Shown: positions 20,740-58,170 of the stretch, one piece after another
Layout of the letters: each line of letters begins with the position of its first letter
Position numbering within the stretch: the stretch's first letter is position 1
Origin: a virus
Length of the DNA: 64,000 nt
Direction: 5' to 3' (one strand)
IMG/VR virus record: IMGVR_UViG_3300045988_182790
Position numbers and translations under genes: made by a program
The notes under the pieces: model-generated
The model's database searches: none
What the model was told of the DNA's origin: nothing
What the model saw: only the letters and a program-made list of their open reading frames with translations

Positions 20740-20936
20740 ATCTTTTTCCTGCTACTCAAAATGTGATTAAATATACTCATCACATCGAGAAATTGTAAGT
20801 TCTCACGAACATTACTTACTGCTTCATCGTGTATGTTCTCGATTGGATAAATCCATATCTACTAACAGGTTCTTGTACACTCCACAGTCGTTAATTCCTG
20901 CGATAGCCCGCAGTACATACTTACGTTTGCGTTTAA

Positions 20937-22115: not shown

Positions 22116-22237
22116 CTCCTTTGATTATTTTTTTATCAACACATTTTTAATATGAGATTTGAAAATAAAATAAGGCTACTAAAAAACAATGTCATTAAGT
22201 ATTTTTTGGTAATCGACTGCCTGATATGTCTAAAATT

Positions 22238-22330
22238 ATTATAAATACTATGTTCTATATAATTTAGACATCCCGACGCTGTAATGTTTTGACGGAAACA
22301 CCTAGTAATTCAGCAAAATCTTTTGGTTTA
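22238..22330 (-). pseudogene. IS607-type tnpA (serine recombinase) 5' remnant, 30 codons
   Basis: MNTSNIINYKPKDFAELLGVSVKTLQRRDV* is a MerR-like HTH typical of IS607 TnpA N-termini and stops prematurely. Confidence 0.5.
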
Positions 22331-22560
22331 TAATTTATGATATTTGATGTATTCATATATATACCTCCATGAGTATGTGTGAACACATTTAGTCACATCT
22401 GACAATATTTTTAATTACTTAGCGTTTCCTCCTTTATTATTTTGTTCAATATGGTCTAAAAGAATATGAGATTTGCAAATAAAAATGGCTCAAAACGCTC
22501 TAGAAACGCTTTAAGCCACTTTTTTATTGTTTAGTCCTCCAAGCAAAACTAAACAATTGT

Positions 22561-22637
22561 GAGTACCAGTCGGACTCGAACCGACATCTGCAAAGGGAAT
22601 GAACCTTTATACCCTACCATTGGATGATGGATACTCT
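22561..22637 (-). tRNA. tRNA-like element (CAT anticodon, Met/Ile2-like), imperfect cloverleaf
   Basis: Acceptor GAGTATC/GGTACTC (7 bp). T-arm GTCGG-TTCGAGT-CCGAC. Anticodon arm AAAGG-TTCATTC-CCTTT. D-arm ATCC-AATGGTA-GGGT. There are 1-2 extra nt at several junctions and T at position 37, so it may be a pseudo-tRNA. Confidence 0.35.
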
Positions 22638-23632: not shown

Positions 23633-24367
23633 CTAATAGATGATTTTATCAACCTTTTTGTTGTAGCCATCCTTTATAGAAGCCATTAATAGATTTGCAT
23701 TCTGTGCAATGCCATCTGCAACTTCTGTTCCATATATAGCCTTGATTTTCTTAAGACCTTCGTTTACATCATTGCTTTCTGCAAATATCTTTGCTGTCTT
23801 AGGAAGGATTTCGTCTCTATCCTCGCCCTTATACTTACACATAGTCATGTAAAAGCTTTCGCTACTATCATCCATCCAGATAACTGTTGGTTCAGGTTTC
23901 TTTTCTGGCATTTTTACAGCCTTTGATGGTTCCTTAGCTAATTTCTCAACTGGCTCATCAATTGGCTTTTTAATTGGTTCCTTAACCACCTTTTCAACCA
24001 CATTTTCTTTCTGTTTATCCATTTTTACTTTTGTCTGCTTAGTTGCAGTTACCCTTGGTGTACGTGGTTTCTTCGGTTTCTCCTGAGGAGATATAAGTTT
24101 CTTTACTGTTGCTGGAATACTGACTGCAGAAATGAATTCTACTTTTTCAGATACGTGCCTGCCTAAATAAAAACACATCTCTTCTGGAGAGTCAGCGATG
24201 ATAATATCCATATTTACTTTTTTATCTGAGATAGCTTTGCATAACTCAATTGAAACGTTCTCACCCTTCTTACAAAAGATTAGCACATTGTCCTCATCTC
24301 CAACTTTTGTTAGCGCATCTATATCTTTAACTGCAAGTTTTGATAATTCACCGATATATGTTTTCAC
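23633..24367 (-). CDS. hypothetical protein with K/P/E-rich linker (244 aa)
   Basis: Intact ORF, probably a GTG start. Class-B motif CATATAGTGGGCAAAA at 24385-24400 upstream. Confidence 0.45.
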   Translation of the reverse strand: MKTYIGELSKLAVKDIDALTKVGDEDNVLIFCKKGENVSIELCKAISDKKVNMDIIIADSPEEMCFYLGRHVSEKVEFISAVSIPATVKKLISPQEKPKKPRTPRVTATKQTKVKMDKQKENVVEKVVKEPIKKPIDEPVEKLAKEPSKAVKMPEKKPEPTVIWMDDSSESFYMTMCKYKGEDRDEILPKTAKIFAESNDVNEGLKKIKAIYGTEVADGIAQNANLLMASIKDGYNKKVDKIIY

Positions 24368-24502
24368 GTTTATCCCTCACTTTCTTCTTTTACTCATATA
24401 GTGGGCAAAAAGTGAGATTTATACAACGAAAATTGCTTATTTTTCTTCCAAATTTCATATTCCTTATATCTAAAAAATTTAATATTGAATGGAGGAAAAA
24501 TT

Positions 24503-24709
24503 ATGATATTTTATAACAAAATTGAGAACTCTACACCACTTATAAAAATGGCGTTAAAAGTTAATCTAGTAGATGAATACAACAAATTAAATGCGCCAAC
24601 GGATATTGTTAGTGGAAAAATAACAAAAGTACTTATAAGCCATGGTTTTGCTGACAATAATTATGGTATTACAAAAAGTGATTTAGAGCAAATTATTAAA
24701 ATTCTTTAA
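24503..24709 (+). CDS. small protein, paralog family S (68 aa)
   Basis: ATG at 24503 after GGAGGAAAAATT. C-terminus HGFADNNYGITKSDLEQIIKIL is paralogous to 37221-37439 (WGFADKNFAVTRKDLEQILKMIG). Confidence 0.5.
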   Translation: MIFYNKIENSTPLIKMALKVNLVDEYNKLNAPTDIVSGKITKVLISHGFADNNYGITKSDLEQIIKIL

Positions 24710-24738
24710 TCAAAAATGGGAGATGTTATTCTCCCATT
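24710..24738. terminator. bidirectional terminator between convergent paralog-module genes
   Basis: AATGGGAGAtgttaTTCTCCCATT followed by T6. Confidence 0.5.
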
Positions 24739-25334
24739 TTTTCATAAATAAAATCAATTGTATCAGCATTAACCATTATATTGCAAAAATAGCAAAGGCT
24801 AATAATGTACATCGAACAAACATCTTTTTGTTCAAACTTCTCCTTCATTAAAGTTAATACTGCAGCAAATGTTTTTACTAATTCCTCTTTGCACTCTATA
24901 ATGTCCGCATCTAATGAAAAGCTTAATAATGGTAGTATGGGAATTGTAGGGCCAGCTTTATTAATTCCATCCTCTGTTGCGCCAATTTTTCCCATATTAT
25001 CTGAAAAAATAAGAATTACTTCTGCGATTTCTTTTGATAAATAAGCAATTTTTTCTCTATCTGTTTCTTTGCTTAGTTGGGTGTTTAATTCTTCCAGTCT
25101 GTTTAAAGTATTTTCAATATCTTGAAATACATCACCTGTTGAAAATAATCCCTTTTTCCAACGTTCTATTCTAATATCTGTCTCTTCTACTGGCAAAGAT
25201 AAAACATCATGCAATGCATCTATAAAATCTGTGTCACCACTACCTTCTTTATTTAGGTCTTTTATTTCACTTTTTCTGAGCTTGTGTAAAATTTCTTTTC
25301 TCTTTTCGCGGACTTCTTTTTCACTATATTCCAT
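24726..25334 (-). CDS. paralog family L protein (about 200 aa; track ORF extends to 25547)
   Basis: Likely start MEYSEKEV (ATG at 25334) after GAGGTGGAGAT. Shares KSEIKDLNKEGSGDTDFIDALHD and RWKKGLFS blocks with the 37480-38049 and 57289-57867 proteins. Confidence 0.5.
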   Translation of the reverse strand: MEYSEKEVREKRKEILHKLRKSEIKDLNKEGSGDTDFIDALHDVLSLPVEETDIRIERWKKGLFSTGDVFQDIENTLNRLEELNTQLSKETDREKIAYLSKEIAEVILIFSDNMGKIGATEDGINKAGPTIPILPLLSFSLDADIIECKEELVKTFAAVLTLMKEKFEQKDVCSMYIISLCYFCNIMVNADTIDFIYEKMGE

Positions 25335-25463
25335 ATCTCCACCTCTTTTTGTGTTCCTATTAATATTGTGGGCATTTTTTCGCGATAATTCAATGCTTAT
25401 TTTTCTTCCAAATTTCATATTCCTTATATCTAAAAAATTTAATATTGAATGGAGGAAATTATT

Positions 25464-25985
25464 ATGAGAATTGACACAATTAAAGGTATTATTGATGGGT
25501 TTTGCTATGCATCTATCGAGATGGAAGGCGGACACATCTCTCGTCACATTAAGTGTGAGGATGGATTTCTTATTGACAGGATTTTGTCAGAAAGAAAAGA
25601 GTTGGCAACGACATTTGATTGCAGTTCTGATGAGGCGGTTGAGCTTATCAAAACAGCTTGTCTTGACGAAGAATGGCAAATGCCAGAATGCATTAAAGAA
25701 TGGTTGGATGATGAGTCTGACCGTGATGATTATGCTTTCGATTTTGATTTTGACCATGTAATAGGGCATGGCTTCTTCAAAAAGGGATGGCATGACTGGA
25801 ACTCAGGCGTCGCCTACTGTTCTCGACTCACCGTGGTGTTAAGAAAGGTTGAACTCCGCGACGGAAGTGACACTTTTCGTGTTTATTCTGCTTATCCGAC
25901 AGTTACAGAGGAAGATATAGAGCGAACAAAGGCTCAGTCTATTAATGCAATGAATGTCAGGGCTGTTAGATATGCAATAGCTTAA
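25464..25985 (+). CDS. hypothetical acidic protein (174 aa)
   Basis: ATG at 25464 after GGAGGAAATTATT. Its promoter/RBS region is a 65-nt copy of the one in front of 24503. Confidence 0.5.
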   Translation: MRIDTIKGIIDGFCYASIEMEGGHISRHIKCEDGFLIDRILSERKELATTFDCSSDEAVELIKTACLDEEWQMPECIKEWLDDESDRDDYAFDFDFDHVIGHGFFKKGWHDWNSGVAYCSRLTVVLRKVELRDGSDTFRVYSAYPTVTEEDIERTKAQSINAMNVRAVRYAIA

Positions 25986-26012
25986 TCACACTAGGAGGGG
26001 TTAATATCCCTC

Positions 26013-26297
26013 CTATTTTCTTGGGAAAAGCTGGAGCTTTGCAGGAATAATTTCCACATTATTTTTGTCAGCAACCTTTTTGTCAATCATCTCTTTTGGT
26101 GCACCATTTTCGAGGTCAAAGGATTTAATTGGTTTTGGGCTTCTATGAATTATCCAGCCATATCCATCTCTTGTTGTGTCTTTTTCTATAACAAGATTCC
26201 AGTTTGGATGAAGCTTTCTGTATTCCTCGATATTAATGCTTGGCTTTCTTGTTATTTTGAAATCGTTTTTACTCATTTTTCCATTTTCCTTTCTCAT
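26013..26297 (-). CDS. hypothetical protein (94 aa)
   Basis: Intact ORF in minus-strand array. Confidence 0.4.
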   Translation of the reverse strand: MRKENGKMSKNDFKITRKPSINIEEYRKLHPNWNLVIEKDTTRDGYGWIIHRSPKPIKSFDLENGAPKEMIDKKVADKNNVEIIPAKLQLFPRK

Positions 26298-26803
26298 AAT
26301 AAAGAATACGCTACAACAAATGCTCGTTCAAGCAAGTGTTATAGCGTGTCCTCTTGTTATGATATATATTTGTAAAGGAGGTTATGTCAGAAACAATTTA
26401 TTTGTTTCTATACCTATATAGTGGGCATGACGTGGAAAATATTCAACATTATTTATACCTTTAACTTCATTTGTCGAATTTAACAATTTATCACCATTAT
26501 TTGTTTTTACTAGATATATTATTTTATCTTCCGTTTCTTTGTAAAAAATATCTGTAGATATATTTTCTAAATGCTCTACGTTTGTTTGCTATTTAATTTT
26601 TATTTACAAAAGTTCAGTTTAACCCACAATGAACTTCTTCTATAATCGTATAATTCTTACTTGTTGTAGGAGTAAATTCGATTTTATAATCTTCCTTTTT
26701 ATTTGCTTTTGCTATCCATACACTACACTTTTTTTTATTTGCAAATTCTTGTGCATTGTGCTTTGCCAAAGAATAAAACTTCATTTTCTACCTCACTAAA
26801 AGC

Positions 26804-27061
26804 TTATTTTTTCCTTTCTGTTAAATCAGCTAAATCTTTATTTAGACTTTTCTTAATATATGTATCTGAATAATCTTTTCCAACTAATTTAACAACATAC
26901 TCTGATGTGTCAAATAATCTTTTTTGAACATCATCACATAACCATTGTCCTGGATATGCTGGGCAATTATTCCCTAAAATATCTTTTAATTTAAATGGCT
27001 TATCAGTTGCAATATTCTTGATATACTCACTCGCTGTTTTTTCAAAAGTTGATTTATCCAT
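26804..27061 (-). CDS. hypothetical protein (85 aa)
   Basis: Intact ORF. Confidence 0.4.
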   Translation of the reverse strand: MDKSTFEKTASEYIKNIATDKPFKLKDILGNNCPAYPGQWLCDDVQKRLFDTSEYVVKLVGKDYSDTYIKKSLNKDLADLTERKK

Positions 27062-27237
27062 AATAATCTCTCTTCCTGCTAGTCATAATCAAGCGTTACA
27101 TTTCCATACATATTTATAAATGGACATTCGATGTCTTTAACTTGATTATCAGGAACATCCACAAGAACTATTGCTTTCATTTCATTACCTTCACTTTCAC
27201 TATCTCACGTTTTTTATATGAAACCTATATTCAATGT

Positions 27238-27462
27238 CTATTTTACAAGTCTTACATCTTCCAATTCACTAAAGAAGAATCCAGCTTCACCAGTTCCATC
27301 CGTTAATGTACACGAAATACTATTTTCTGTCATGTCATAAATATCTCCAATATATCGTTCTCCGTTGTTTGCTATAAGTTCTACTCTATCACCGACAACG
27401 ACTGAAACTCCATTCGATAATACATAACAATGTTTTGCTTCTTTCATTTTTATTTCCTCCAA
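27238..27462 (-). CDS. hypothetical protein (74 aa)
   Basis: Intact ORF with RBS. Confidence 0.4.
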   Translation of the reverse strand: MEEIKMKEAKHCYVLSNGVSVVVGDRVELIANNGERYIGDIYDMTENSISCTLTDGTGEAGFFFSELEDVRLVK

Positions 27463-27476
27463 TTCATTCGTTGCTT

Positions 27477-27725
27477 CTATATTATAGTCATACTCACAAT
27501 TTTAGGATTTTTCATTGTTCTACAACTACCAATATTCATATCATAATATTCTTCATCCTCATTAAGAATTATGATTGCTCCGCTATCCCTACTATCGTTT
27601 TCCTGAACAATGATTTCATTAATATATTTATCAGTGGTCTTAATACCATCCTCTTCTTCAATTTGAATTTCCTTAATTGCATCCTCGTCAATTTCCACTT
27701 CTAAAACAATCTGTAATTTCTTCAT
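27477..27725 (-). CDS. hypothetical acidic protein (82 aa)
   Basis: Intact ORF, E/D-rich. Confidence 0.4.
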   Translation of the reverse strand: MKKLQIVLEVEIDEDAIKEIQIEEEDGIKTTDKYINEIIVQENDSRDSGAIIILNEDEEYYDMNIGSCRTMKNPKIVSMTII

Positions 27726-27756
27726 AATATCAATCTCCTTTTCTTATATAAAACTA

Positions 27757-28083
27757 TTACTTTATTGCCGTTAAATTATTATTGTAAATTTCTTTCCATC
27801 TATCGCCATCAGGAATATTGTTAAAATTGTCTGCATTTGCTTCAAATAATTTTTCTATAGTTCTGTATTCTGCACAATACATACATAAGATTGGTGCATA
27901 ATCATCTAATGTTTCAAAAGCATATGCATACGAATCTTCGTCATATACAATCATTCCTTTTAATTCTTCAACTTCCTCTTTCCTTTTAGGTCTTTGTAAC
28001 TTAATATCAAAGCTGCAAATATCACCGCACTGTAATTTATGCCCATATTTATCTGTTCCAATAATTAAATTAGGTATAATCAT
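27757..28083 (-). CDS. hypothetical protein (108 aa)
   Basis: Intact ORF. Class-B variant CCTACTATATTAA upstream (28153-28167 on the + strand). Confidence 0.45.
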   Translation of the reverse strand: MIIPNLIIGTDKYGHKLQCGDICSFDIKLQRPKRKEEVEELKGMIVYDEDSYAYAFETLDDYAPILCMYCAEYRTIEKLFEANADNFNNIPDGDRWKEIYNNNLTAIK

Positions 28084-28186
28084 AATATCAATCTCCTTTC
28101 AAAAAGCCCATAAATCAATCAATCAATAACTTTTTCCTTTTGTTTTTCTATTAATATAGTAGGCATATCATTACAAATATTCAATA

Positions 28187-28705
28187 TTATTTTGCCAATT
28201 TCTCTAAGCCATCAATATTGCAGAAAATATGTGCATTATCTTGAAGATATAAGCAAAATCTTCTATCTAATAATTCATAATCTTTATTTTTATCTGCATC
28301 ACGTAGCGCTTCAAGCTGAGTTTGCAAATAAGTAATGACAATATTCAATCGTGAAATCAAATCGGACATATTACAGACATCTTTATTGAGTGGTTCCAAC
28401 TCACAATGACCGATTGAGAAATTTCTATAACCTTTTCCTGTTGTGGCTAATATGTTAGCTATAACCATAGAAAAAGCCGACTGCCAGGCTAATATATTGG
28501 CCGCAATATCAAAGAATGTATTTATATCAACAGTATTGTTTTTGATGCAGTTCTTTAAGGAATAGATGATTTGTTCAAATTCATCTATTTCCTTTGTGAC
28601 CTTTTCTTCAATGGATAAATTGTTGTTGAGTAATTTGTTTTTCCATTCGTTTTCTTTGTCTGATGTTGCAACCATTTTTACCTCTTTATAAGCAAATAGT
28701 ATCAT
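28187..28705 (-). CDS. hypothetical protein (172 aa)
   Basis: Intact ORF. Confidence 0.45.
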   Translation of the reverse strand: MILFAYKEVKMVATSDKENEWKNKLLNNNLSIEEKVTKEIDEFEQIIYSLKNCIKNNTVDINTFFDIAANILAWQSAFSMVIANILATTGKGYRNFSIGHCELEPLNKDVCNMSDLISRLNIVITYLQTQLEALRDADKNKDYELLDRRFCLYLQDNAHIFCNIDGLEKLAK

Positions 28706-28820
28706 CTTTATGATACTACATTTTGTATCATCTTGGCGATACTATTTTGGAAAAGTGTTAATGAATAACGATAGCGAAAAAAAATAAGGCCCACAAGCAG
28801 ATACTTGCAGGCCTTTGAGT

Positions 28821-29519
28821 TTACTTCACGTCAATGTCTACTGGATTTTCAAGTTTCAATAAATCATCTCTGTGTTCGACGAGTGCAGCGCTCGCGATGG
28901 AATTTACTTTATTTTGGCAGAAAGCTTCAATTTCGCCTTTTGCTTCCATAACTGTTTTATCCATCTGCTCATTGAACTGGTCAGCAATAAAATCCATATT
29001 GCATCCAATATCCATACTCAGTTTTGATAATTTACTAAGTATTTCTTGTCTATCTGCTTTTGTTAAATTCTTTTTCTGTTCAAACATTTCAGATACAGAA
29101 TTAATAAGTTCCTGAGACTGCTCGGTGATTTTCTTACGTTTTTGCTTAAATTCATCAGTAAACTGTTCTCTCTTGCTCACAAAATCACAAGGAGGAATTT
29201 TACCATCCTTTTCTGTCCAGCGAATAGTAACAGGAACTCCACTTCCCATATTCATAGAAGTAATTGCTTCTGCGAACTGTGAATAACTCATTTCTACTTC
29301 TGCAATTACTTTGTTTCCACAAACATGGTCTTCATGCAACCCCCTTGTAACATTTGCATGATACAATGTCATTGCAATTGTATCTCTGTGTTCAATGCTA
29401 CTTCCAAATAAAGGTGTCGCTCCACCTGTCCTTCTACTAAAAGCCAATGTTCCATAACTCGGATGGCTTGTCTTTGTACCAAACTGTGTTTCTTCTGTTT
29501 TATAATTATTGTCTGCCAT
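28821..29519 (-). CDS. hypothetical protein (232 aa)
   Basis: Intact ORF. Its promoter/leader (29520-29585) and first codons (MADNN) are duplicated at 17584-17645 in front of the UvrD C-terminal part (MAKNN). Confidence 0.5.
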   Translation of the reverse strand: MADNNYKTEETQFGTKTSHPSYGTLAFSRRTGGATPLFGSSIEHRDTIAMTLYHANVTRGLHEDHVCGNKVIAEVEMSYSQFAEAITSMNMGSGVPVTIRWTEKDGKIPPCDFVSKREQFTDEFKQKRKKITEQSQELINSVSEMFEQKKNLTKADRQEILSKLSKLSMDIGCNMDFIADQFNEQMDKTVMEAKGEIEAFCQNKVNSIASAALVEHRDDLLKLENPVDIDVK

Positions 29520-29590
29520 ATTCTTTTCCTCCTTTAATGTATTTTTTATTTATATGACGATATAAATATGAAATTTGAATGTATGTGAAC

Positions 29591-30199
29591 TTATTTAACT
29601 AACATATCGCTAATATTTTTGGCATTTTCTAAACCAAGTTCAGATAATTTATTCATTTGCTCTTTAGTTAAAACATAATTACCACCAACATATACTGCAT
29701 ATTTATTATCTTTATTATAAGGACTATATATCTTGCACCAACCATGTTCTTCGAGATATTTTTCTGGATTATTAGTTTCAAATTGTCCAAAACAAATATC
29801 ATATGCTAATGAATGATGTCCTTGATAATCACAATGAAAATATCTGCCATCTGGAGAAATAAAACCAAATAGAGAATTATGCTTAAAATCTTCTTCCTTT
29901 TCAATTTTATGTGCAAGTTCAGTAGCTTCTTCGTGTTTTGGAAGTTCTGTTTGAGGTCTATTATATTCTTCAAAAAATTCCCAAATACTTTGACTAGCAT
30001 CATTATGAGCTTCTTGCCATATCCATATAACACCAAACATAAGACCTTCTGCTGGAATAGCAAATATGGATGCTTTGTCTACATTTTTATTCATAAGAAT
30101 ATTTAATAATACTTCTTTGTCATTATCTCTATCAGACATTATCCATTTTTGAATATCATTTTCTTTATAACAATAAAGTGTTTTTGGTCGTCTTTTCAT
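29591..30199 (-). CDS. hypothetical protein (202 aa)
   Basis: Intact ORF, preceded by the boundary motif TAAACTGAACTTTAA. Confidence 0.45.
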   Translation of the reverse strand: MKRRPKTLYCYKENDIQKWIMSDRDNDKEVLLNILMNKNVDKASIFAIPAEGLMFGVIWIWQEAHNDASQSIWEFFEEYNRPQTELPKHEEATELAHKIEKEEDFKHNSLFGFISPDGRYFHCDYQGHHSLAYDICFGQFETNNPEKYLEEHGWCKIYSPYNKDNKYAVYVGGNYVLTKEQMNKLSELGLENAKNISDMLVK

Positions 30200-30229
30200 A
30201 TTTTTTTACCTTTTTCATTAAAGTTCAGT

Positions 30230-30421
30230 TTACCTATGTAATTCTTTTGCTCTTTCTTCGATATCTTTTCTTATTCCTAAATCGCCTATATCGTAAAGCA
30301 ATTTTTCTTCAAAATCATCAATAGCTTGATTGTATGCCTGTATTCTCGCATTACATTCATCACTAGCATAATCACATATGCATTTATTATTCATAGTACA
30401 CTGTTTGCATATAACTAGCAT
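30230..30421 (-). CDS. small Cys-rich protein (63 aa)
   Basis: CKQC...CICDYASDEC cluster. Confidence 0.4.
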   Translation of the reverse strand: MLVICKQCTMNNKCICDYASDECNARIQAYNQAIDDFEEKLLYDIGDLGIRKDIEERAKELHR

Positions 30422-30464
30422 TTATATACACCACCTTTTATCTATCATCTAATTTACTAAATCC

Positions 30465-30848
30465 TTAGTTTACCTGCTTTGCACAAATCTGCTCTGTCTG
30501 TTCTCGTGTGAGGAATACTGTTTTTCCGAAATCTGCAATATCAGGCTCAATTTCATCTAAACATTCACTCGGACAATCTCCAATAGGTACAGAATATGCA
30601 CTGCATTGATATGTGATATGTTCGTCTATGACAATACTATCTACTGTATATGACAAAATACCGAACTCACTACAATATGCATATACCGTATCTCCAACCT
30701 TACACGGAAGCTTAAGTAATAAACCCTGCTCTTCTGCATCCTCGTATTCAGCTAATTTTTTTGCTATATCATTCATTCCAAGTGTCTGTATTTTTTCGTT
30801 TGGAATAAACGGTGTTCCATCAGAATAATTTTGAGTTATTCTATTCAT
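30465..30848 (-). CDS. hypothetical protein (127 aa)
   Basis: Intact ORF whose stop lies inside GTAAACTAAGGATTTA. Confidence 0.45.
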   Translation of the reverse strand: MNRITQNYSDGTPFIPNEKIQTLGMNDIAKKLAEYEDAEEQGLLLKLPCKVGDTVYAYCSEFGILSYTVDSIVIDEHITYQCSAYSVPIGDCPSECLDEIEPDIADFGKTVFLTREQTEQICAKQVN

Positions 30849-31205
30849 GTTTTGTCTCCTAACGTCTAATTTAGCATTTATAAGTTTATATATTTTTATC
30901 CATCAATGTATCGTATTCAGATGGACTCATTTCTGATAGAATACTTTTTAAAAAATTGCATTTTTCGGTAAAAGGGCAAACTTCGCAATCCTTTTGGTTG
31001 GTCTATTTTTACACTCTTCAACTAAATTCTTTACTTTCATGTAATTCCTTTCTGCCCAAGTGGGCTAAATCCTAATTTTAGAGTTATTTTAATTTTCTGC
31101 TACTTTTATAATTTCAATTTATTTATACATTAATATAGTAGATATATATAAAAATTTATCCAATAAAAAACAGAGATAGTTTTATCTACCTCTGCTTTTT
31201 TGTTC

Positions 31206-32786
31206 TTAGGAGAAATCTTCTTTATTATCGGTATTCTTTTTTGATACTGCTGGCTGTTTTGCTTCTGGCAGTTCAACCTTTACTTCATCAGGAATGCCAT
31301 TTACAGTGATGTTTTTGTTTACCTTGGCATCATATGTATTGGCTTTCATAATCTCTGTAAAATCAACACCTGTCGCCTCGGACATTGTATCGAAAATCTG
31401 TTTCATTACAACTGGAACGTTGTTTGAGATACCAGTAACCCCGCCGTCTCCAGTTCCACCACCATAAATTGATACATTATCAATAGATGCAAGTGGTTTT
31501 GCAATTTCTGCCGCCATTTGTGGCATGATGTTTACAATCATTTCTACCATAGCCGCGCCTGTATACTTCTTGTAAGCTTCGGCCTTCTTTTCCATCGCCT
31601 CTGCCTCAGCAAGTCCCTTCGCCTCGATAGCTTTAGCTTCTGCTTCACCGACTGCAGCAATACCTTCTGCCTCGGCACGTTTTACAGCAAGGATTCCTTC
31701 GGCTTCTTTTTTCTTTGCCTCTTTTTCAGCATCAGCCTTGATTTTTCTCACTTCGGCATCTTTTTGCTGTTCGTACTTATCGGCATCTGCCTGTCTCTGC
31801 TTCTCGATAAGTTCAGCTTCGGCTTCCTGCTGACGACGATATTTTTCAGCATCAGCTTTCTTTTTAATCTCCGCATTAAGAGTCTGCTCCATAACTTCTG
31901 CCTCTTTCTGGCGAAGCTCTACGGTACGTTCCTGCTGAGCAATATCAGCATTTACTCTTGTTGCTTCGATAGTTTTTCTCTGTTCCTCTTCCTGAATCTG
32001 ATAAGCCGCATCTGCAATAGCTTTCTTTGTATCAGATTCCTGCTTTAATTCTGCCTGTTTTATAGCGAGTTCATTCTGTTTTGCAGCAATCTCTGTTTCA
32101 GCCGCAACTCTCGCATCATTTGCCTCTTTTTCAGCCTGTGCTCTTGCAATAGCGACGTCTCTGTCAGCATTTGCTTTTGCGATGGAAGCATTTTTGCTAA
32201 TCTGAGCAACATTATCAATACCCATATTAACAATGACATCATCATTGTCTGAGAAATTCTGAACATTGAAAGATTTTATACTAAGACCCATTCGTTTTAA
32301 ATCTGGTTCTGCATTCTGAGTGACCAATTCACCGAATTTCTGACGGTCAGTAACCATTTCCTGTAGGTGCATTCTACCGACAATCTCTCTCATGTTGCCT
32401 TCAAGCACTTCTCTTGCAATGTTTCCAATTGCCTGAGGTGGTAAATTAAGGAAATTTCGTGCAGCGGTTTCAAGCATTGCTGGGTCATCAGCTTCTACTT
32501 GTACATTGACGTTTGCATCAACCATAATATTAATATAATCAGCTGTTGGTACTGGTGAAGATGTTGTAACTTCAACTGGAATAAGTTTCAATGACAGCTT
32601 GTCTTTCTTTTCCAGAAATGGAATTTTAACTCCAGCTCTTCCGATTAACACCTTGGGCTTTTTTCTTAATCCAGTAATAATAAATGCTTCATCTGTTGAA
32701 GCTTTTACATACCCACTTGCAAGAATAATTGCTAATAAAATTACCGCGACGGCGATAATAAAAACTACAGGACTAATAAAATTCAT
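31206..32786 (-). CDS. flotillin-like SPFH/band-7 membrane protein
   Basis: N-terminal TM helix, SPFH-like core, and a long A/E/K-rich coiled-coil (AEKEA...KAIEAKGLAEAEA) typical of YqiK/FloT flotillins. Confidence 0.75.
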   Translation of the reverse strand: MNFISPVVFIIAVAVILLAIILASGYVKASTDEAFIITGLRKKPKVLIGRAGVKIPFLEKKDKLSLKLIPVEVTTSSPVPTADYINIMVDANVNVQVEADDPAMLETAARNFLNLPPQAIGNIAREVLEGNMREIVGRMHLQEMVTDRQKFGELVTQNAEPDLKRMGLSIKSFNVQNFSDNDDVIVNMGIDNVAQISKNASIAKANADRDVAIARAQAEKEANDARVAAETEIAAKQNELAIKQAELKQESDTKKAIADAAYQIQEEEQRKTIEATRVNADIAQQERTVELRQKEAEVMEQTLNAEIKKKADAEKYRRQQEAEAELIEKQRQADADKYEQQKDAEVRKIKADAEKEAKKKEAEGILAVKRAEAEGIAAVGEAEAKAIEAKGLAEAEAMEKKAEAYKKYTGAAMVEMIVNIMPQMAAEIAKPLASIDNVSIYGGGTGDGGVTGISNNVPVVMKQIFDTMSEATGVDFTEIMKANTYDAKVNKNITVNGIPDEVKVELPEAKQPAVSKKNTDNKEDFS

Positions 32787-33016
32787 GTTTTTTTATTCCT
32801 CTCTTTTTTACTTTAATCGGTGTTATTTATTTTTTATTTTTATTTTTTGCTCAGCTCTTGGGCGACTTGCAGACAGCCATTCAAGGCTAGAATATATGTT
32901 TTTACCCATATAAAATCCTTTCATTTTGTTTGTTATGTTATGATAGTGGGCAAAAATTGGATTTTGTTTTAAAAAAAATAGCAAGAAATGTAAAAACATC
33001 TCTTGCTATTTTCGTT

Positions 33017-34372
33017 TTACACTAATCTATTGATGCCCTCTTTTGCAAGCGGACTTCTTACCGACTCAGAATTATCAAATGTAATCTGAGCACACAATTT
33101 GGAACCCTTCATCTTTTCTGCCGCAAAAACTAATCCATTATTCCATTTATCCAGTACTGGATTATCTATCTGATTAGGGTCTCCGCAGATAACAACTTTT
33201 GTTCCCTGTCCAGCTCTTGTAATAATATCTCTTATCTGAGAGCGTGTTGCATTCTGAGTTTCATCTACTATCAAATAACTGTTTGTAATAGAACGTCCCC
33301 TCATGTATGCTAAAGGACAGATTTCGATAATGCCAGTTTCAAACATATCCTCTATTTGCATCTGTATTTCTCGATTGTCTATATCCTTATTTTTACTACG
33401 AATAATTGATTGTAAATTATCGTAGAACGGAGCCATTAATGGGTTCATCTTCTCTTCCAAATCGCCTGGCAAATAACCAAAATCTGCATCGGCCATAACA
33501 TTATTTCGAGAAATAAGTATTCTGTCGTAAGAACGTTCCTTTTTACTGTTGTATACTTGGTCTAGTCCGCCAACCAATGAGAGGAAAGTTTTTGAAGTAC
33601 CTGCATTTCCCCTTAAAATAACAAAAGGTATTTCATCAACTGGAGCTAATAATGCGTGTAATGCAAAGTGTTGTGCAACATTTTTAGGTGTAATTCCGAA
33701 GGAATGAGTTTTCTTTGAGTCGATTAAGTTGATATTTCCGTTTTGATATATTCCTAAAAGCGACTGGTTGCCACATTTTATAGTAAGAAATTCATTCTCA
33801 ATGAAAGGTGGCTTCACATCATCAAACTCTCTAAGCTCAAGTGTTTTTTCTTTTACCAATTTTTCCATTGCAGCATAATTGTTTGTCTCAACAATTCTTC
33901 TGCCAAGATATGTTTCTTTATCAGAGGCTATTCTGTCATTTTTGTATGCCTGAACATTTTGATTTAATCCGCAGGCAGAAGCGTTTATTCGCATTGAAAT
34001 ATCGTTTGTTACTAAGATAACATTTTCGTCAGGATTATTTGCTTTTGCAAAAAGTGTTGTTCCAATAATTTGATTATCTGGCTTTTCTTTGCTATAGCTT
34101 GCTGGGAGAATTGATGTATCAGACTGTAAAATCATAAACTTTCCACCATTATCAAGCTCAACACCAGTGGTTAAATCTCCCTTTTCTCTTATTGCCTCAA
34201 GTAGTCTACAAGTCTCTCTTGCATTAAAACCAATATCATTGTGCAAATTCTTTTTTGAATCAAGTTCCTGCAGAGTTGTTGTTGTGATTGCAACGGTATT
34301 GTCTGCAAAACCAAAGATTGCATTTGGTGACTCTAGCAAAATGTTTGTGTCAAGAATGTAAGTTTTCTTCAT
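33017..34372 (-). CDS. PhoH2-type protein (N-terminal PIN domain + PhoH-like ATPase)
   Basis: PIN-like N-terminus (YILDTNILLE). Walker A RGNAGTSKT, Walker B LIVDETQN, and C-terminal KH-like region. Confidence 0.8.
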   Translation of the reverse strand: MKKTYILDTNILLESPNAIFGFADNTVAITTTTLQELDSKKNLHNDIGFNARETCRLLEAIREKGDLTTGVELDNGGKFMILQSDTSILPASYSKEKPDNQIIGTTLFAKANNPDENVILVTNDISMRINASACGLNQNVQAYKNDRIASDKETYLGRRIVETNNYAAMEKLVKEKTLELREFDDVKPPFIENEFLTIKCGNQSLLGIYQNGNINLIDSKKTHSFGITPKNVAQHFALHALLAPVDEIPFVILRGNAGTSKTFLSLVGGLDQVYNSKKERSYDRILISRNNVMADADFGYLPGDLEEKMNPLMAPFYDNLQSIIRSKNKDIDNREIQMQIEDMFETGIIEICPLAYMRGRSITNSYLIVDETQNATRSQIRDIITRAGQGTKVVICGDPNQIDNPVLDKWNNGLVFAAEKMKGSKLCAQITFDNSESVRSPLAKEGINRLV

Positions 34373-34388
34373 AAAGTGTGTCCTTTCT

Positions 34389-34595
34389 TTAGTCTATATC
34401 TTCCACGTCTTTATCGTAGTAAGGGTTCCAATCGCTTTCGTCTTCTGACTGCGAAAAAATATCATCGAGCGTGGCTTCGATTATCTTTTTGTGGATTTTG
34501 TATGCTAAAACTCCGACAACAGTTCCGCCGATTAAGGAACCAGTTAACAATGCGACAGATTTCTTCATAAAATGTCTCCTTTCTTTTTGTCCCAA
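34389..34595 (-). CDS. small membrane protein (68 aa)
   Basis: Single TM helix LLTGSLIGGTVVGVLAY with an acidic tail. Confidence 0.35.
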   Translation of the reverse strand: MGQKERRHFMKKSVALLTGSLIGGTVVGVLAYKIHKKIIEATLDDIFSQSEDESDWNPYYDKDVEDID

Positions 34596-34852
34596 TAATC
34601 TTTCATCCTTTTTGCGGCATCTTCTCTTTGTTCATCTGTCATCTCATGTGAATTTGTAAAGAGATGTAAATACTTGAGAGGCATATGTGCAACAATACAT
34701 TTGCCGCCATTGTCAGCAAGAATATCAATATCCTCTGGATGTTCTTTTTGTAGATTAATAACTTTATTTCTCCATTTTTCCTGAGAAAAGGTTACTGTTA
34801 TAGTTTGAGTGCCTGTAATCCACTCGATGACATTCTCTTTTATATCTGTCAT
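34565..34852 (-). CDS. hypothetical protein (95 aa)
   Basis: Intact ORF overlapping its neighbours by a few codons. Confidence 0.4.
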   Translation of the reverse strand: MTDIKENVIEWITGTQTITVTFSQEKWRNKVINLQKEHPEDIDILADNGGKCIVAHMPLKYLHLFTNSHEMTDEQREDAAKRMKDYWDKKKGDIL

Positions 34853-35091
34853 GTACCAAACTCCTTTCGTAATTTTTCTATTAGTTCTTCTGCTTCATCT
34901 CCGTAGGCAACAATCTTTACAGGGTTCATAAGGTTTAGACTATATATCCCAAGAATGGAATGGCCATCTACAACATACTTGCCCTGAGATGCGTCTATGG
35001 AGCAGGTAAATTTGTTTACTATGTTTATGAACTCAGCTACTTTTTCAAATTGGTTGATGTAAATAACTGTTTCTGTATTTTTGTGTGTCAT
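34849..35091 (-). CDS. HPr/Crh-like phosphocarrier-fold protein lacking the His15 equivalent
   Basis: KYVVDGHSILGIYSL compares to HPr KSVNLKSIMGVMSLG (Ser46 region). VKIVAYGDEAEELIEKL compares to VTITVDGADEAEGMAAI. No His in the N-terminal loop. Class-B motif CTATAGTGGGTAAA 17 nt upstream. Confidence 0.4.
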   Translation of the reverse strand: MTHKNTETVIYINQFEKVAEFINIVNKFTCSIDASQGKYVVDGHSILGIYSLNLMNPVKIVAYGDEAEELIEKLRKEFGT

Positions 35092-35129
35092 AAAAGTTCC
35101 TTTCTACTATAGTGGGTAAATTGGTTGTT

Positions 35130-36341
35130 CTATCTAACAGAAATTGACGGTATATCGCAAGAACAAATACAATACCGCTTATCTTCTGAAATAGTTCCAT
35201 TTGCAACATTCACTGCGTGTTTATCTATTGTTTTTTCATAAATGTTTCTTACTGTTCTTGCGTTGCCAAAATTTCTTTGCCTTTGTTCGTATTTCATTCT
35301 CTCAACAAATTCTTTTAGGTAATCCGTTGACACCTTATATCCGTTTGTATGAGCCAGCTTCAAAAACATTTCTTGGAAGTTTTTCATCGAATAATTTCCA
35401 AACCACAAATAATGTTTAATTCGAGAGGCGATGCCTGGATTGGAATTAATGAAATTTTTCATTTCCGTCTCATAGCCAGCAAAAATGAATACAATATCAT
35501 CTCTATGGTCTTCCATTTCTTTGATAAGTGTTGCTATTGCTTCATCTCCGCCACTTCCTGTAAGCAATGCGTAGGCCTCGTCAATAAACAAAACGCCCCC
35601 CATACTCTTTTGAATGAGCATAGATGTTTTCTTTGCGCTTTCGCCTACATACCTCCCCTTAAGAAAGTTTCCATCGACTTCAACACACTGATTTTTCCTA
35701 ATATATCCATTCTGATACAAAAATCCTGCCATAATACGAGCAACAGTTGTTTTTCCTGTGCCTGCTGGCCCCATAAAAATCATGCTCATCGAATCTGTTG
35801 GATGAAATTGTCCTTTACCGCCGTCATCTTTCCATTTTTGTTTTTCAAACTGCATCTTTGCAATCAGCTCATTCATCATTGTTTTGGTTTCTTCCAAACC
35901 GATTAATTTATCCAATTCTTCCTGCGGATTTTTAACACCTTCATGGGTGATTTTTCGCATTGTTGCAGAGTCTAATGTTTTTTCTGACTCCATCATGCGT
36001 TGACGCTCTATTACATCCCTATCTTTACCAGACATTTTTTTTAAGCTGTTGTACTTTTTACTGTTTCCATTTTCGTCATATTCAACTTCATCTCTAAGGC
36101 TTTGTCTTGACTTGGTTAATATTGGGTATAAAACTATTCCAGCAATGGCAAGCATTGAGAATAAGACAATATACAGTGTTGAAAAATCTCTTTGAATTTC
36201 TCCACTTGATGTAGTAAATCCGCCTAGTGTTCTTTCAGTTAGCAAAAAATACAGTGCTCCAACAATGCCGCCGATAATTGCAAGAATATCAAGAACTGAG
36301 CCAAGAATTACTGCGTAGTATTTAAGTTCTTTATTTGTCAT
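35130..36341 (-). CDS. membrane-anchored AAA+ ATPase of the SpoVK/CbbX family
   Basis: Two N-terminal TM helices. Walker A GPAGTGKTT, Walker B VLFIDEAYAL, and the SpoVK/CbbX-type C-terminal helical lid. Confidence 0.8.
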   Translation of the reverse strand: MTNKELKYYAVILGSVLDILAIIGGIVGALYFLLTERTLGGFTTSSGEIQRDFSTLYIVLFSMLAIAGIVLYPILTKSRQSLRDEVEYDENGNSKKYNSLKKMSGKDRDVIERQRMMESEKTLDSATMRKITHEGVKNPQEELDKLIGLEETKTMMNELIAKMQFEKQKWKDDGGKGQFHPTDSMSMIFMGPAGTGKTTVARIMAGFLYQNGYIRKNQCVEVDGNFLKGRYVGESAKKTSMLIQKSMGGVLFIDEAYALLTGSGGDEAIATLIKEMEDHRDDIVFIFAGYETEMKNFINSNPGIASRIKHYLWFGNYSMKNFQEMFLKLAHTNGYKVSTDYLKEFVERMKYEQRQRNFGNARTVRNIYEKTIDKHAVNVANGTISEDKRYCICSCDIPSISVR

Positions 36342-36356
36342 AAAAATATTCCTTTC

Positions 36357-36998
36357 TTAGAATGACAAACCGTCATATTCCTTTTGCATGGCAATAAATG
36401 ATTTTTCATCTCCGCAACCCATATCTGGATGAAAAGCTTTTGCAAGGGCTTTATATCTCCTATCAGCCTCTTCCTTTGTTTTGCATCCAGAAAAATAAGC
36501 GGAAGTAGGATTTGATTTAGAGGAATAGTTTTCAGTAAAGGTTTTTCTTTCTTCGTTTCCTTCATTTCTTTGGTATTCTGGAAAGATTTCATCCAGACTT
36601 TTTGTAAGATTTTTCATGGAAGACAACGCAACGGAAAGACTTTTCAGAGAATCCATGCAGTAAAAGTTATGTTCTATTTCAGATTTTGCATTGATGATTG
36701 TGTTTTCAGCGATTACTCTAAGGCGTTCATATTCTTCTTCTATATCTCCCAGCATTGACAAGGAATTAGAGTCACACATTCGTATACACTCATTTTTCTT
36801 GTTATTAAATTTGATTTCAAAAGTTTGAATAATATTGTTGTATTTATCTATGCAGTGATTTAGTTCATCAATATTTCTTTTTGCGTTCATATACTCTTCG
36901 TTTGAAGAGATATTTTTCTTTTGTTTTGGTTTTGTTGCAGTTAACAAAAATAATGCAGACATGACACAAATGACAATAAAAATATAAATTCCAACCAA
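36357..36998 (-). CDS. membrane-anchored J-domain (DnaJ-like) protein
   Basis: N-terminal TM helix (TTG start). C-terminal J-domain YKALAKAFHPDMG containing the HPD tripeptide. Confidence 0.65.
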   Translation of the reverse strand: MVGIYIFIVICVMSALFLLTATKPKQKKNISSNEEYMNAKRNIDELNHCIDKYNNIIQTFEIKFNNKKNECIRMCDSNSLSMLGDIEEEYERLRVIAENTIINAKSEIEHNFYCMDSLKSLSVALSSMKNLTKSLDEIFPEYQRNEGNEERKTFTENYSSKSNPTSAYFSGCKTKEEADRRYKALAKAFHPDMGCGDEKSFIAMQKEYDGLSF

Positions 36999-37074
36999 AA
37001 TAAATTCCTCACTTTTTTTATTTACAAAAAATATGAGATACAGAAAAACAGGATAAGAAATTTGCTATTTATTA

Positions 37075-37112
37075 CACAACATAATACAGTGCAATTTTCG
37101 TGCACTTTTTTG
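37075..37112. repeat. copy 1 (diverged) of 36-bp promoter-region repeat
   Basis: CACAACATAATACAGTGCA + hairpin AGTGCAattttcgTGCACT + T-run. Shares 19 nt with the copies at 38118 and 55791. Confidence 0.6.
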
Positions 37113-37220
37113 TTTGGTTTACATCCACATAGCATTTTTTGGCACTTTTTGTACTTAATTTGTTCTTAAATTTCATATTCCTTATACTGAACAATTTAAT
37201 ATTAAAAGGAGGAATTTATT

Positions 37221-37439
37221 ATGGTATTTTTCAAAAAGATTGAACAGGAAATTTCAAAGCCGCACATAAGGGCTGGGCTAAAACCTACAATTGAGCACGA
37301 ACTTCGCAAGATGACGGACACGAAAACTGATGCCGCCAGTGAACAATTCAAGAATCTTCTTATCACTTGGGGTTTTGCTGACAAGAATTTTGCTGTTACA
37401 AGGAAAGATTTGGAGCAAATACTCAAAATGATTGGATAA
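37221..37439 (+). CDS. small protein, paralog family S (72 aa)
   Basis: Paralog of 24503-24709. Promoter region AAATTTCATATTCCTTATA is shared. Confidence 0.5.
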   Translation: MVFFKKIEQEISKPHIRAGLKPTIEHELRKMTDTKTDAASEQFKNLLITWGFADKNFAVTRKDLEQILKMIG

Positions 37440-37440
37440 A

Positions 37441-37478
37441 CAAAAAGCGGAGGAGCATCGCCCTTCCGCTTTCTTTTT
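37441..37478. terminator. bidirectional terminator
   Basis: GCGGAGGagcatcgCCCTTCCGC followed by a T-run, between convergent genes. Confidence 0.5.
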
Positions 37479-37479
37479 G

Positions 37480-38049
37480 CTATTTATCACACATTTCTTT
37501 TATTGTTCCAGCATTTACAGATATATTTGTATAATATACAAGAGAATAAACAAGTATATTGTCATAATTTTCATTTTTTATTGCTTGCTTAGTTACCTCA
37601 AGAACATTTTTTGTAAATGCTATAAATTCTGCTATTGCATCCAACAAAGGAGTATTGTCCATTATATCAATAGGCACTAAGGTTAAATTTGTTTCTTCGT
37701 CTGTGTAACACTCAATTGTTGTTAATGTGTTTGCCAGAATAAGAATTGTATCAATAATGTTTTGCATTATTGTCACAATAATATTTTTATCTTGCACGTT
37801 TGACAAATCATTGTTAAGGCACTCTATTTTGCTTACAATAGAAGCTATATCTTCTAGCTTATCTTCTTTTTCTGGCAATCCTTGTTGCCAACGAAGCTTT
37901 TTCTCAGATGGTATATTTTCTGTATCTGTATCAGAAATCATTAATTTGATTCCATCAATAAAGTCTTCACCTGCTCCAGAAATATTGTTTATATCTTTTA
38001 GTTCGCTTTTGTGAAACTTTCTTTTAATTTCTTTTATCTTATCAGTCAT
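37480..38049 (-). CDS. paralog family L protein (189 aa)
   Basis: Shares KSELKDINNISGAGEDFIDGIKL and RWQQGLPE blocks with the 24726 and 57289 proteins. Confidence 0.5.
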   Translation of the reverse strand: MTDKIKEIKRKFHKSELKDINNISGAGEDFIDGIKLMISDTDTENIPSEKKLRWQQGLPEKEDKLEDIASIVSKIECLNNDLSNVQDKNIIVTIMQNIIDTILILANTLTTIECYTDEETNLTLVPIDIMDNTPLLDAIAEFIAFTKNVLEVTKQAIKNENYDNILVYSLVYYTNISVNAGTIKEMCDK

Positions 38050-38117
38050 ATTTTTGACACTCCTTTTATCATATCGTAGATAAAATTTGAAAAATATTCA
38101 AGAATTTTCATTTATAC

Positions 38118-38153
38118 ACACAACATAATACAGTGCAGATTTTTTGCGCTTTC
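38118..38153. repeat. copy 2 of 36-bp promoter-region repeat
   Basis: CACAACATAATACAGTGCAGATTTTTTGCGCTTTCT, identical over 36 nt to 55791-55826. Confidence 0.7.
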
Positions 38154-38164
38154 TTTTGTAAAAA

Positions 38165-38202
38165 AAATGGAGCTGTCTAAATGACAACTCCACTCCTTTT
38201 TG
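38165..38202. terminator. terminator after dnaE
   Basis: GGAGCTGTCtaaatGACAACTCC with T-runs on both strands. Confidence 0.5.
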
Positions 38203-40479: not shown

Positions 40480-40886
40480 CATTCATACCCTCGGTTTCCC
40501 GATATTTTGACTTTTAGGGGACTAGACTATATCTCGCTATTTAAAATAGCATGATGCACTTCGGTTAAGTATTCATCTCTTAACCTACTCTACTCGATTC
40601 GTCCTTAATAGGCTTATTCTCTTATTACTAAGAGTTACATTTATTAGTTCTTTCGATAGTCGTTACACTTTTGTTTATAATGTAATAAACACTTAGCACG
40701 GTATCACCTGCTATCTGTTTCCAGACCGTAGGCTCTCTTACGAAGCGGATTCGTCTATGGATTAAGCTGTATATCTCGTTGTGACGCTTCATACAGCAGT
40801 CTTATCTAGCTTCTACCGTTAGCACGTAACTCTTAGGCTACGCACACCCTTGAAAAAAGGTTCACATCATACGCCCAATATAGTTT
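40480..40886 (-). other. group I self-splicing intron (ORF-less, about 407 nt) in dnaE
   Basis: Exon 1 ends ...RVSMP (cct) and exon 2 starts DIDTDF, restoring the conserved RVSMPDIDxDF. Intron GGGCGT 11 nt in can pair with exon AUGCCU to form P1 with a U·G at the splice site. The last intron nt is G. AGATATAGTC is present (group I S-element-like). Confidence 0.65.
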
Positions 40887-53308: not shown

Positions 53309-53311
53309 ACG

Positions 53312-54313: not shown

Positions 54314-54318
54314 AGTTC

Positions 54319-57867: not shown

Positions 57868-58009
57868 GAATTTACCTCTTAATATTATTCTTTTTATTTA
57901 TTGTAGGTATTTTTTGGTATTTATTCAACGCAATTAGTGTCCTTAATTTATTTACAGAACTCATATTTATTATATCTAAACAATTTCATATATTTAAAGG
58001 AGGGAATAC

Positions 58010-58170
58010 TAAGTAATTCAAAATATTGTCAAATGTGATTAAACGTGTCTAAATGTACTCATGGAGGTATACTTATGAATACATCAAATATCACAAATTA
58101 TAAACCAAAAGATTTTGCTGAATTACTAGGTGTTTCCGTCAAAACATTACAAATAATATCATTTATCTGA
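58010..58170 (+). mobile_element. IS607-family left-end fragment with a 31-codon tnpA remnant
   Basis: About 85% identical to 22238-22400 in reverse orientation. Encodes MNTSNITNYKPKDFAELLGVSVKTLQ... Overlaps and supplies the last codons of the collagen-like gene. Confidence 0.5.

Follow-up and report, generated by a model that had tools for sequence, protein, structure and literature searches.

Paired L and S gene families beside a stand-alone RNase A-like gene in a lineage of large gut mobile elements

Among the described systems closest to the locus discussed here is CdiA-CT/CdiI(Ykris), whose toxin has the catalytic residues His175, Arg186, Thr276 and Tyr278, and homologs of this RNase have been reported beside immunity genes (PMC5435912). 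The same toxin domain (PF18431) is encoded, above the Pfam threshold, by a gene in a 64,000-nt stretch of viral DNA, IMG/VR record IMGVR_UViG_3300045988_182790 (the window, by which we mean the whole of that stretch), where it stands alone next to members of two gene families, one of larger proteins (L) and one of small proteins (S), that are found side by side on opposite strands. L and S appear to be the components of self-contained modules of two genes, which lie in an accessory island that is hypervariable and belongs to a gut element of 100-214 kb, and this island seems to be anchored on the conserved RNase A-like gene and its convergent ~90-aa neighbour. The pairing of L and S is real and probably functional, and we tentatively see in it a module in which S is an effector and L its neutraliser.

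Two families and their conserved adjacency

The window, which is low in GC (~34%) and has nearly all its long open reading frames (ORFs) on the minus strand, holds exactly three L and two S genes when both family profiles are run against all six-frame ORFs. These genes, together with the RNase A-like gene (hereafter the RNase gene) and its neighbour, are as follows.

24503 to 24709, plus strand: S1, 68 aa, S family, matching the S profile at 4e-29
24726 to 25334, minus strand: L1, 202 aa, L family, acidic and all-helical
25464 to 25985, plus strand: stand-alone RNase A-like toxin-domain protein, 173 aa, PF18431 RNAse_A_bac
26013 to 26297, minus strand: p94, basic 94-aa protein (isoelectric point, pI, 9.8), convergent with the RNase gene, candidate RNase partner
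37221 to 37439, plus strand: S2, 72 aa, S family
37480 to 38049, minus strand: L2, 189 aa, L family
57289 to 57867, minus strand: L3, 192 aa, L family, last ~8 codons replaced relative to its ortholog

The initial annotation, made from the bare letters, had proposed that the three minus-strand proteins of ~190 aa are related, as are the two plus-strand proteins of 68-72 aa, and sequence comparison confirms that both are sets of paralogs: L1 and L2 align over their full length (28% identity, E=1e-19), L3 matches them only over its N-terminal 55-90 residues (E=2e-6 to L1 and 7e-9 to L2), and S1 and S2 are 41% identical (E=2e-18). Within the L family, mean pairwise identity is 37% over the N-terminal 58 residues vs 19% over the rest of the protein. 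AlphaFold2 models L1 with eight helices (predicted local distance difference test, pLDDT, 69; predicted TM-score, pTM, 0.65), confidence in L being low for the conserved head and 80-94 pLDDT for the helical body, and S2 as a small domain of four helices (pLDDT 92, pTM 0.77); structure prediction of both families led to no recognised fold, in line with the initial annotation. L proteins are strongly acidic (pI mostly ~4.5, net charge -13 to -18, with a pI of 4.7 for L1), and S proteins have a pI of 5.5-9.4 and are soluble by their grand average of hydropathy (-0.8 to 0.0).

A word-indexed search of 5.8 billion proteins returned only near-identical copies of L and S, the L profile, in a full HMMER search of 1.84 billion cluster representatives, picked up nine proteins, and a search with an enlarged S profile yielded 13 clusters. 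Neither family has a match in Pfam, PHROG or NCBIfam or a sequence relative in the PDB, where the L, S and RNase profiles hit only designed helical bundles or noise. Nothing was found by tblastn of S2 and the RNase protein against phages and plasmids, by scanning IMG/VR for L, S, DnaE and RNase (patterns and tblastn), or by running the RNase profile against GTDB genomes and JGI metagenome contigs. L and S are lineage-restricted ORFan families, previously undescribed. Orthologs of L, S, the RNase and p90 (the syntenic 90-aa counterpart of p94) are under purifying selection, with dN/dS values of 0.05-0.23 (0.06-0.09 for S, and 0.23 for L3 against its ortholog), which indicates that all of these are real coding genes.

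The contigs that carry L and S homologs include a 71.7-kb contig and a 213.5-kb scaffold, both syntenic with the window (85% identity for UvrD, 78% for a 385-aa gene, 62% for a 244-aa gene, 71-73% for the RNase and 47-48% for p90). Maps of the island, drawn from the region of the 244-aa gene to the RNase gene with L on the plus strand and arrowheads for gene direction, compare as follows.

Contig L009 (71.7 kb): p90> <RNase L192> <S73 L193> L199> <S73
Contig L007: as L009, plus one further L
Contig L008: <RNase L191> <S71 L192> <S73
Contigs L010-L012 (213-kb element): p90> <RNase L195> <S67 L197> L199> <S75
Contig L013: <RNase L196> <S73 L194> <S75
Window: p94> <RNase L1> <S1

The order RNase, L, S is kept in all six genomes with sufficient context, in islands of one to four L genes where the types of L and S differ from one genome to another, and the RNase, at 71-73% identity between genomes, is far more conserved than the adjacent L (21-33%) or S (~25%, or a different type). 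When the distribution of the pair in related genomes is checked, L and S are seen to co-occur and to keep their adjacency. On ten contigs, in a sample mostly retrieved with L queries, S adjoins L for each of the 16 distinct S genes (14 tail-to-tail and 2 head-to-head), and the contigs retrieved with the S query alone have the same S-beside-L pattern. Of the 21 L genes, seven lack an S at the 3′ end; they are in tandem L-L(-L)-S arrays or are of the L3 type. Adjacency of S and L is found at three genomic locations and in both geometries. The pair moves as a unit: in the window, L2/S2 lies beside dnaE, and its closest relatives (47-50% identity for both L and S) are in the RNase island. L3-type proteins accompany a group of S proteins made up of S-c, S69, S67 and S1, even where the tail-to-tail arrangement becomes head-to-head, and the divergence of adjacent L and S is correlated (r=0.74, Mantel p=2e-4).

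Terminators, promoter cassettes and an eroded module

As had been proposed, S1/L1 and S2/L2 are tail-to-tail across a common bidirectional terminator, with intergenic hairpins that fold stably whichever strand is read, at -16 to -22 kcal/mol (z -3.1 to -4.5, 0/200 shuffles as stable); the 3′ arm of the first hairpin overlaps the last L1 codons.

24712 to 24741, both strands: bidirectional terminator hairpin of S1/L1, 12-bp stem, -16.2/-17.0 kcal/mol, z -4.5/-3.8
25992 to 26015: terminator hairpin separating the RNase gene from the convergent p94 gene
37445 to 37471, both strands: bidirectional terminator hairpin of S2/L2, -18.5/-21.7 kcal/mol, z -3.1/-4.4

The span 24434-38049, under which the modules had been annotated, is no single unit: unrelated genes (flotillin, PhoH, AAA+, DnaE) are interspersed, and the L/S modules are dispersed among them. 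The promoter and ribosome-binding site (RBS) cassettes and promoter-like sequences are as follows.

24434 to 24498, plus strand: promoter/RBS cassette copy 1, driving S1, 65/65 identical to 25394-25458, with the lineage-wide motif AAATTTCATATT and a GGAGG RBS
25394 to 25458, plus strand: cassette copy 2, driving the RNase gene and forming with copy 1 direct repeats around S1-L1
37152 to 37216, plus strand: cassette copy 3, driving S2, 63% identical to copies 1 and 2 ungapped and 84-87% gapped
57940 to 58004, plus strand: orphan cassette copy 4, 74-76% identical, driving no gene here and S69 in relatives
25360 to 25393, minus strand: sigma-70-like promoter candidate of L1, TTGAAT-N17-CACAAT inside TGCCCAC[TA]ATAT, a consensus match only
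38103 to 38155, minus strand: promoter-like repeat ahead of L2, in direct orientation to 37059-37111 and 75% identical to it

All plus-strand genes had been thought to use one nearly identical 65-nt cassette. Near-identity is true of copies 1 and 2 and not of the S2 copy or the fourth one, and the plus-strand genes at 5551 (an RNase T-like exonuclease) and 8246 are without a cassette. The consensus CTTAAATCTCATATT ... AAAGGAGGA ... ATG precedes every S and every RNase gene at all loci inspected. At least 14 minus-strand genes and three plus-strand genes have AAAT[CT]TCATATT at 34-52 nt upstream (e.g. at 8149, 11611, 15499, 17628, 19511, 29565, in the region of 42528 and at 59589), and the TCATATT core of this motif is found at this distance from the N-terminal ORF of dnaE, a primase-like gene and uvrD, among others. 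The cassette core TTTCATATT occurs 17 times in the window vs 4.2 times expected. The TCATATT class is probably the main promoter class of the element, and since the core motif is genome-wide, the cassette is ruled out as a module-specific element. The other recurrent upstream motifs are TGCCCAC[TA]ATAT and CACTGTATTATGTTGTG. L1 and L3 are preceded by sigma-70-like sequences (TTGAAT-N17-CACAAT/TACAAT), the minus-strand TGCCCAC[TA]ATAT being also present at other genes, and L2 by a CACTGTATTAT repeat common to two other genes.

Both intact modules of the window are flanked by direct repeats of promoter sequence, S1-L1 by the 65-nt cassettes (100% identity) and S2-L2 by 53-nt repeats (75%). The RNase cassette of the window is 97-100% identical to its own S1 cassette and only 70-73% identical to the RNase cassettes of other genomes, a pattern that would fit a recent insertion or gene conversion via recombination within the cassette.

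Around L3 two further features matter.

55975 to 57246, minus strand: TnpB gene of the IS200/IS605 type, abutting the altered 3′ end of L3 (Pfam OrfB_IS605 and Cas12f1-like_TNB; NCBIfam guided_TnpB, 187 bits)
57998 to 58152, plus strand: left end of an IS607 element and its first 26 tnpA codons, in place of the module 3 S gene and of the end (3′) of the 487-aa gene

Positions 57313-58002 of the window are 95.7% identical in nt to contig L014, and homology ends on both sides. In this contig and in L015, the right breakpoint is followed 9 nt further on by the start of S69, an S-family gene (E ~6e-8 to S67, S1 and S73c) that is head-to-head with the ortholog of L3. The window has in its place a fragment of an insertion sequence (IS), an incomplete IS607 consisting only of the left end and 26 codons, which are identical at 26/26 aa and 83% of nt to an annotated IS607 transposase of Agathobacter rectalis (tblastn against plasmids). 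NCBIfam leaves the 31-aa tnpA fragment unclassified. The C-terminal ~17 residues of the 487-aa gene (58098-59561, minus strand) are encoded by the antisense of this fragment, so its natural 3′ end has been lost. On the other side, homology ends at 57313, with the last ~8 codons of L3 different from those of the ortholog and the TnpB gene beyond. To judge from these alignments, module 3 is degraded, and L3, which is intact despite the loss of S, is what survives of a module that two IS elements have eroded, its S having been replaced. The surroundings of L3 have no Rfam match. The 487-aa protein contains in-frame repeats of 105-216 nt (58192-58737) that encode GADGYTPVKGVDYFT units, and has weak tail-fibre-like PHROG matches.

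The RNase gene and readings of the pairing

The RNase protein matches PF18431 with 42.2 bits (gathering score 27), E=1.7e-10, over model positions 3-113 of 113, and precomputed matches to this family exist for its orthologs, which occupy the equivalent position in relatives, always beside an L/S array. The protein, which is acidic (pI 4.7), is a PF18431 member in a locus whose architecture is not that of contact-dependent inhibition (CDI) or of polymorphic toxins. H28, R39 and Y144 are invariant in four orthologs, and position 142 is Thr in relatives and Ser in the window. H28 and R39 are 11 residues apart, as are His175 and Arg186 of Ykris, and [ST]-x-Y near the end of the domain recalls Thr276/Tyr278, so that by their spacing H28, R39 and [ST]-x-Y could correspond to the Ykris catalytic residues. 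As for a partner, the syntenic p90 is present in all relatives with context. Because p90/p94 always adjoins the RNase gene and evolves at a comparable rate, the RNase being far more conserved than L and S, we infer that p90/p94, rather than L or S, is the likelier RNase partner.

What, then, might L and S do? Our preferred reading, which is possible and held tentatively, is that they make up a functional module of effector (S) and neutraliser (L). The S unit, like that of the RNase, appears to consist of an opposite-strand TTAAAT[CT]TCATATT motif with a consensus RBS, the gene and a bidirectional terminator in common with a main-strand gene, and S would be an active and potentially harmful small protein that is expressed together with the RNase. 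L would be its binding partner, neutralising or directing it, with a conserved 58-residue N-terminal head serving a function common to all paralogs and a variable C-terminal helical body conferring specificity. Recombination at terminators and at the repeats of promoter sequence may have copied, relocated and exchanged the modules, which IS elements erode. This reading would explain the asymmetry between the two families: S is never found away from L and L is often without its own S, as it should be with S as the potentially harmful partner and L as its protector, since orphan protectors are tolerated and orphan effectors are not. Its fuller form, a new two-component conflict module in which S is an effector co-expressed with the RNase from a promoter class common to both and held or targeted by a modular L, and the promoter cassette doubles as a recombination site between elements, is rather more doubtful.

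Several points weigh against an effector and its neutraliser. The tail-to-tail geometry alone is no evidence of pairing, because where nearly all genes are on one strand, a gene on the other must converge with one of its neighbours. Retrieval of most contigs by L queries biases the adjacency count, outside which there are six further S-bearing contigs, and linkage by itself would produce a correlated divergence of L and S. Of the 13 pairs, two are discordant, one with 95% identity in L and 21% in S and the other with 79% in L and 47% in S, which suggests that L and S alleles have been exchanged at the terminator and cassette boundaries and makes strict cognate specificity doubtful. S, which is soluble and small, has no known toxin fold when its structure is compared, and L, S and p94, like the RNase protein, have no match in PADLOC at E<0.01.

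A contender that deserves serious consideration, if a somewhat doubtful one, is that L and S are functionally unrelated accessory ORFans tied by linkage only, in a block duplicated and moved as a unit, S being an ordinary opposite-strand 'moron' that has a promoter and terminator of its own. With almost every gene on the minus strand, a plus-strand gene is bound to be convergent, the geometry of the RNase/p94 pair is identical, and the promoter motif is genome-wide; in addition, the two discordant pairs speak for independent exchange of S and L alleles, the L:S ratio is above 1, and L3 persists without its S. Mere linkage is, however, hard to reconcile with adjacency at three locations and in both geometries down to a divergence of ~20-30% identity, with the presence of L on at least one side of every S, or with an association between L3-type proteins and S-c/S69 that survives rearrangement. 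That L and/or S would instead inhibit, immunise against or regulate the RNase, extra copies being orphan immunities against the RNases of competing elements, we consider unlikely. The RNase/L/S order in six of six genomes, the identical promoter and RBS of S1 and the RNase gene, and the immunity genes reported beside RNase homologs (see above) are in its favour, as is the strong acidity of L, acidity being a property of many RNase inhibitors, and one S (P0022) has a weak match to Imm74 (PF15603; 16.5 bits, E=0.009). This match is, however, below the gathering score of 27, and the other 14 of the 15 S proteins scanned gave nothing; moreover, the RNase is itself acidic, L2/S2 and L3 lie 12 kb and 32 kb from its gene, and the 90-aa convergent neighbour, always adjacent and of similar rate, is a better immunity candidate. 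L and S do not co-vary with the 71-73% conserved RNase, which rules out S as its cognate immunity.

The initial annotation had likened the locus to toxin-antitoxin (TA) or immunity pairs. The pairing has proved real and conserved; the features of a classic TA operon are absent, and the roles that the data suggest for the partners, as well as the link to the RNase, differ from what had been supposed. That L would be the toxin and S the antitoxin of a classic type II TA or immunity pair seems highly improbable, for all the conserved two-gene pairing, the strong RBS of the small partner and the mobile element, since the genes are convergent, with promoter-like regions of their own and a bidirectional terminator between them, and belong to no known toxin superfamily, nor is there any known toxin or antitoxin domain or a helix-turn-helix (HTH), ribbon-helix-helix or AbrB antitoxin fold in L and S. 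Moreover, orphan L genes are common and L3 is intact after loss of its S, which disfavours a toxic L because an unneutralised toxin should not persist, and the persistence of such orphans rules out L as a strictly neutralised toxin. Type I TA features (a small hydrophobic toxin peptide and an overlapping non-coding antisense RNA) are lacking too, S being predicted to be soluble with a confident fold and L a soluble 190-aa protein, with a terminator separating the transcripts. An effector S with a neutraliser L fits the asymmetry better than does a classic TA operon. Roles outside conflict are very unlikely as well, i.e. that the two are regulatory or structural accessory proteins, L an adaptor with an N-terminal docking motif and S a small regulator. 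The conserved head and variable body of L would suit this, and so would promoters that are sigma-70-like or of the CACTGTATTAT class for L and of the TCATATT class for S; however, the pI of S is not consistently basic, and close relatives differ in the number and kind of copies, as genes with core functions seldom do.

Should S and L prove to be an effector and its neutraliser, this would have implications reaching beyond the locus, as it would (i) add two new protein families and folds to the toxin/immunity or host-takeover repertoire of this lineage of human-gut elements, (ii) tie them to a stand-alone RNase A-like toxin gene, the first of its kind on an element of this sort in the material searched, and (iii) illustrate how the limits of exchangeable gene modules can be set by a conserved promoter/RBS cassette and by bidirectional terminators. 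Were it a matter of linkage only, the locus would be an ordinary hypervariable ORFan island.

The carrier element and its likeness to known systems

The window, part of a 100.3-kb contig from a gut metagenome (ENA ERZ27229639 k119_147736), comes from a small lineage of large gut mobile elements of 100-214 kb. It encodes replication and repair proteins (DnaE in two ORFs, a DnaG-type zinc finger protein, UvrD, and RecD2 and SNF2-type helicases), a PARP-domain protein, PhoH, flotillin, an AAA+ ATPase, a T2SSE/T2SSF-like cluster, a 1428-aa subtilase and two TnpB. Its DnaE is only ~35% identical to the DnaE of Firmicutes plasmids and phages, a PHROGs scan of 26 window proteins turned up neither capsid nor portal nor terminase and gave only weak tail-like repeat matches, and megablast of 24300-38200 against INPHARED phages found no match; the carrier could be either phage or plasmid. 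A member of the Lachnospiraceae is its probable host, as hinted by an IS607-type element (20740-22433, minus strand) that is ~80% identical to one in Agathobacter rectalis. This element retains its left end with a short 5′ piece of tnpA (22271-22433), tnpB (20937-22115) and a RAGATH-18 RNA (20816-20888, 72.8 bits), most of tnpA being gone. In the 213-kb relatives an IS200/IS605 element (Y1 transposase and TnpB) lies ~1 kb from the p90/RNase end of the island (14307-15831 in L010 and 5022-6546 in L016/L017), which suggests that IS elements recur around this hot spot.

Other genes of the element can be noted. The two dnaE ORFs (38203-40482 and 40833-42533, minus strand), one with the PHP domain and the start of the NTPase domain and the other with the remainder, are separated by ~350 nt in which no Rfam family, group I/II introns included, was found at E<=0.1. 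A 430-aa protein (9109-10401, minus strand) has a poly(ADP-ribose) polymerase catalytic domain (PF00644, E=3.5e-20), with a TCATATT motif upstream of its gene. The cluster at 52439-55710 includes a T2SSE-type ATPase (54319-55710, minus strand) and a weakly T2SSF-like membrane protein (52439-53308, minus strand), which suggests a pilus or secretion cluster on the element. In relatives L009 and L010, MCP-signal and FliG_C-like genes adjoin the L/S island. A tRNA-Met (CAT) gene (22559-22636, minus strand) lies between the IS607 derivative and a 271-aa gene, and a 426-aa gene (14188-15468) has internal in-frame tandem repeats of 21 nt and 15 nt at 15087-15275.

Set against known systems, the locus is distinct from each. 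With type II TA modules it has in common a conserved two-gene pairing on a mobile element, with a strong RBS for the small partner; unlike them, L and S do not form an operon, include no autoregulatory DNA-binding antitoxin fold and no known toxin superfamily, and are not in a 1:1 ratio. CdiA-CT/CdiI(Ykris) has the same toxin domain, and the window RNase gene is flanked by small genes that are possible inhibitor genes. However, the window RNase is a stand-alone protein of 173 aa without a delivery domain (CdiA, Rhs or LXG), its gene is not followed by a co-directional immunity gene (the next one downstream being convergent and L divergent), and L, S and p94 are unlike CdiI in sequence, as are L and S in fold. 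In addition, it is the RNase that is conserved rather than polymorphic in this lineage, and its neighbours that vary.

Phage morons and acr-aca loci resemble L/S in being independently transcribed units (promoter, gene, terminator) between core genes, and in consisting of small, acidic, fast-evolving genes that are shuffled at a fixed genomic hot spot. The L/S locus differs in having no Aca-type HTH regulator, and, to our knowledge, two specific families paired on opposite strands are no described feature of morons or acr-aca loci. As for the orphan-immunity islands of polymorphic toxins and bacteriocins, they differ from this locus, in which L and S occupy opposite strands and have promoters of their own, no secretion-associated domains were found, and neither L nor S is known to Pfam, PADLOC or NCBIfam. 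What likens the window lineage to them is the presence of fast-diverging paralog arrays beside a toxin gene, with variable copy number, signs of recombination at flanking repeats, and an L that is often an orphan next to an S that never is.

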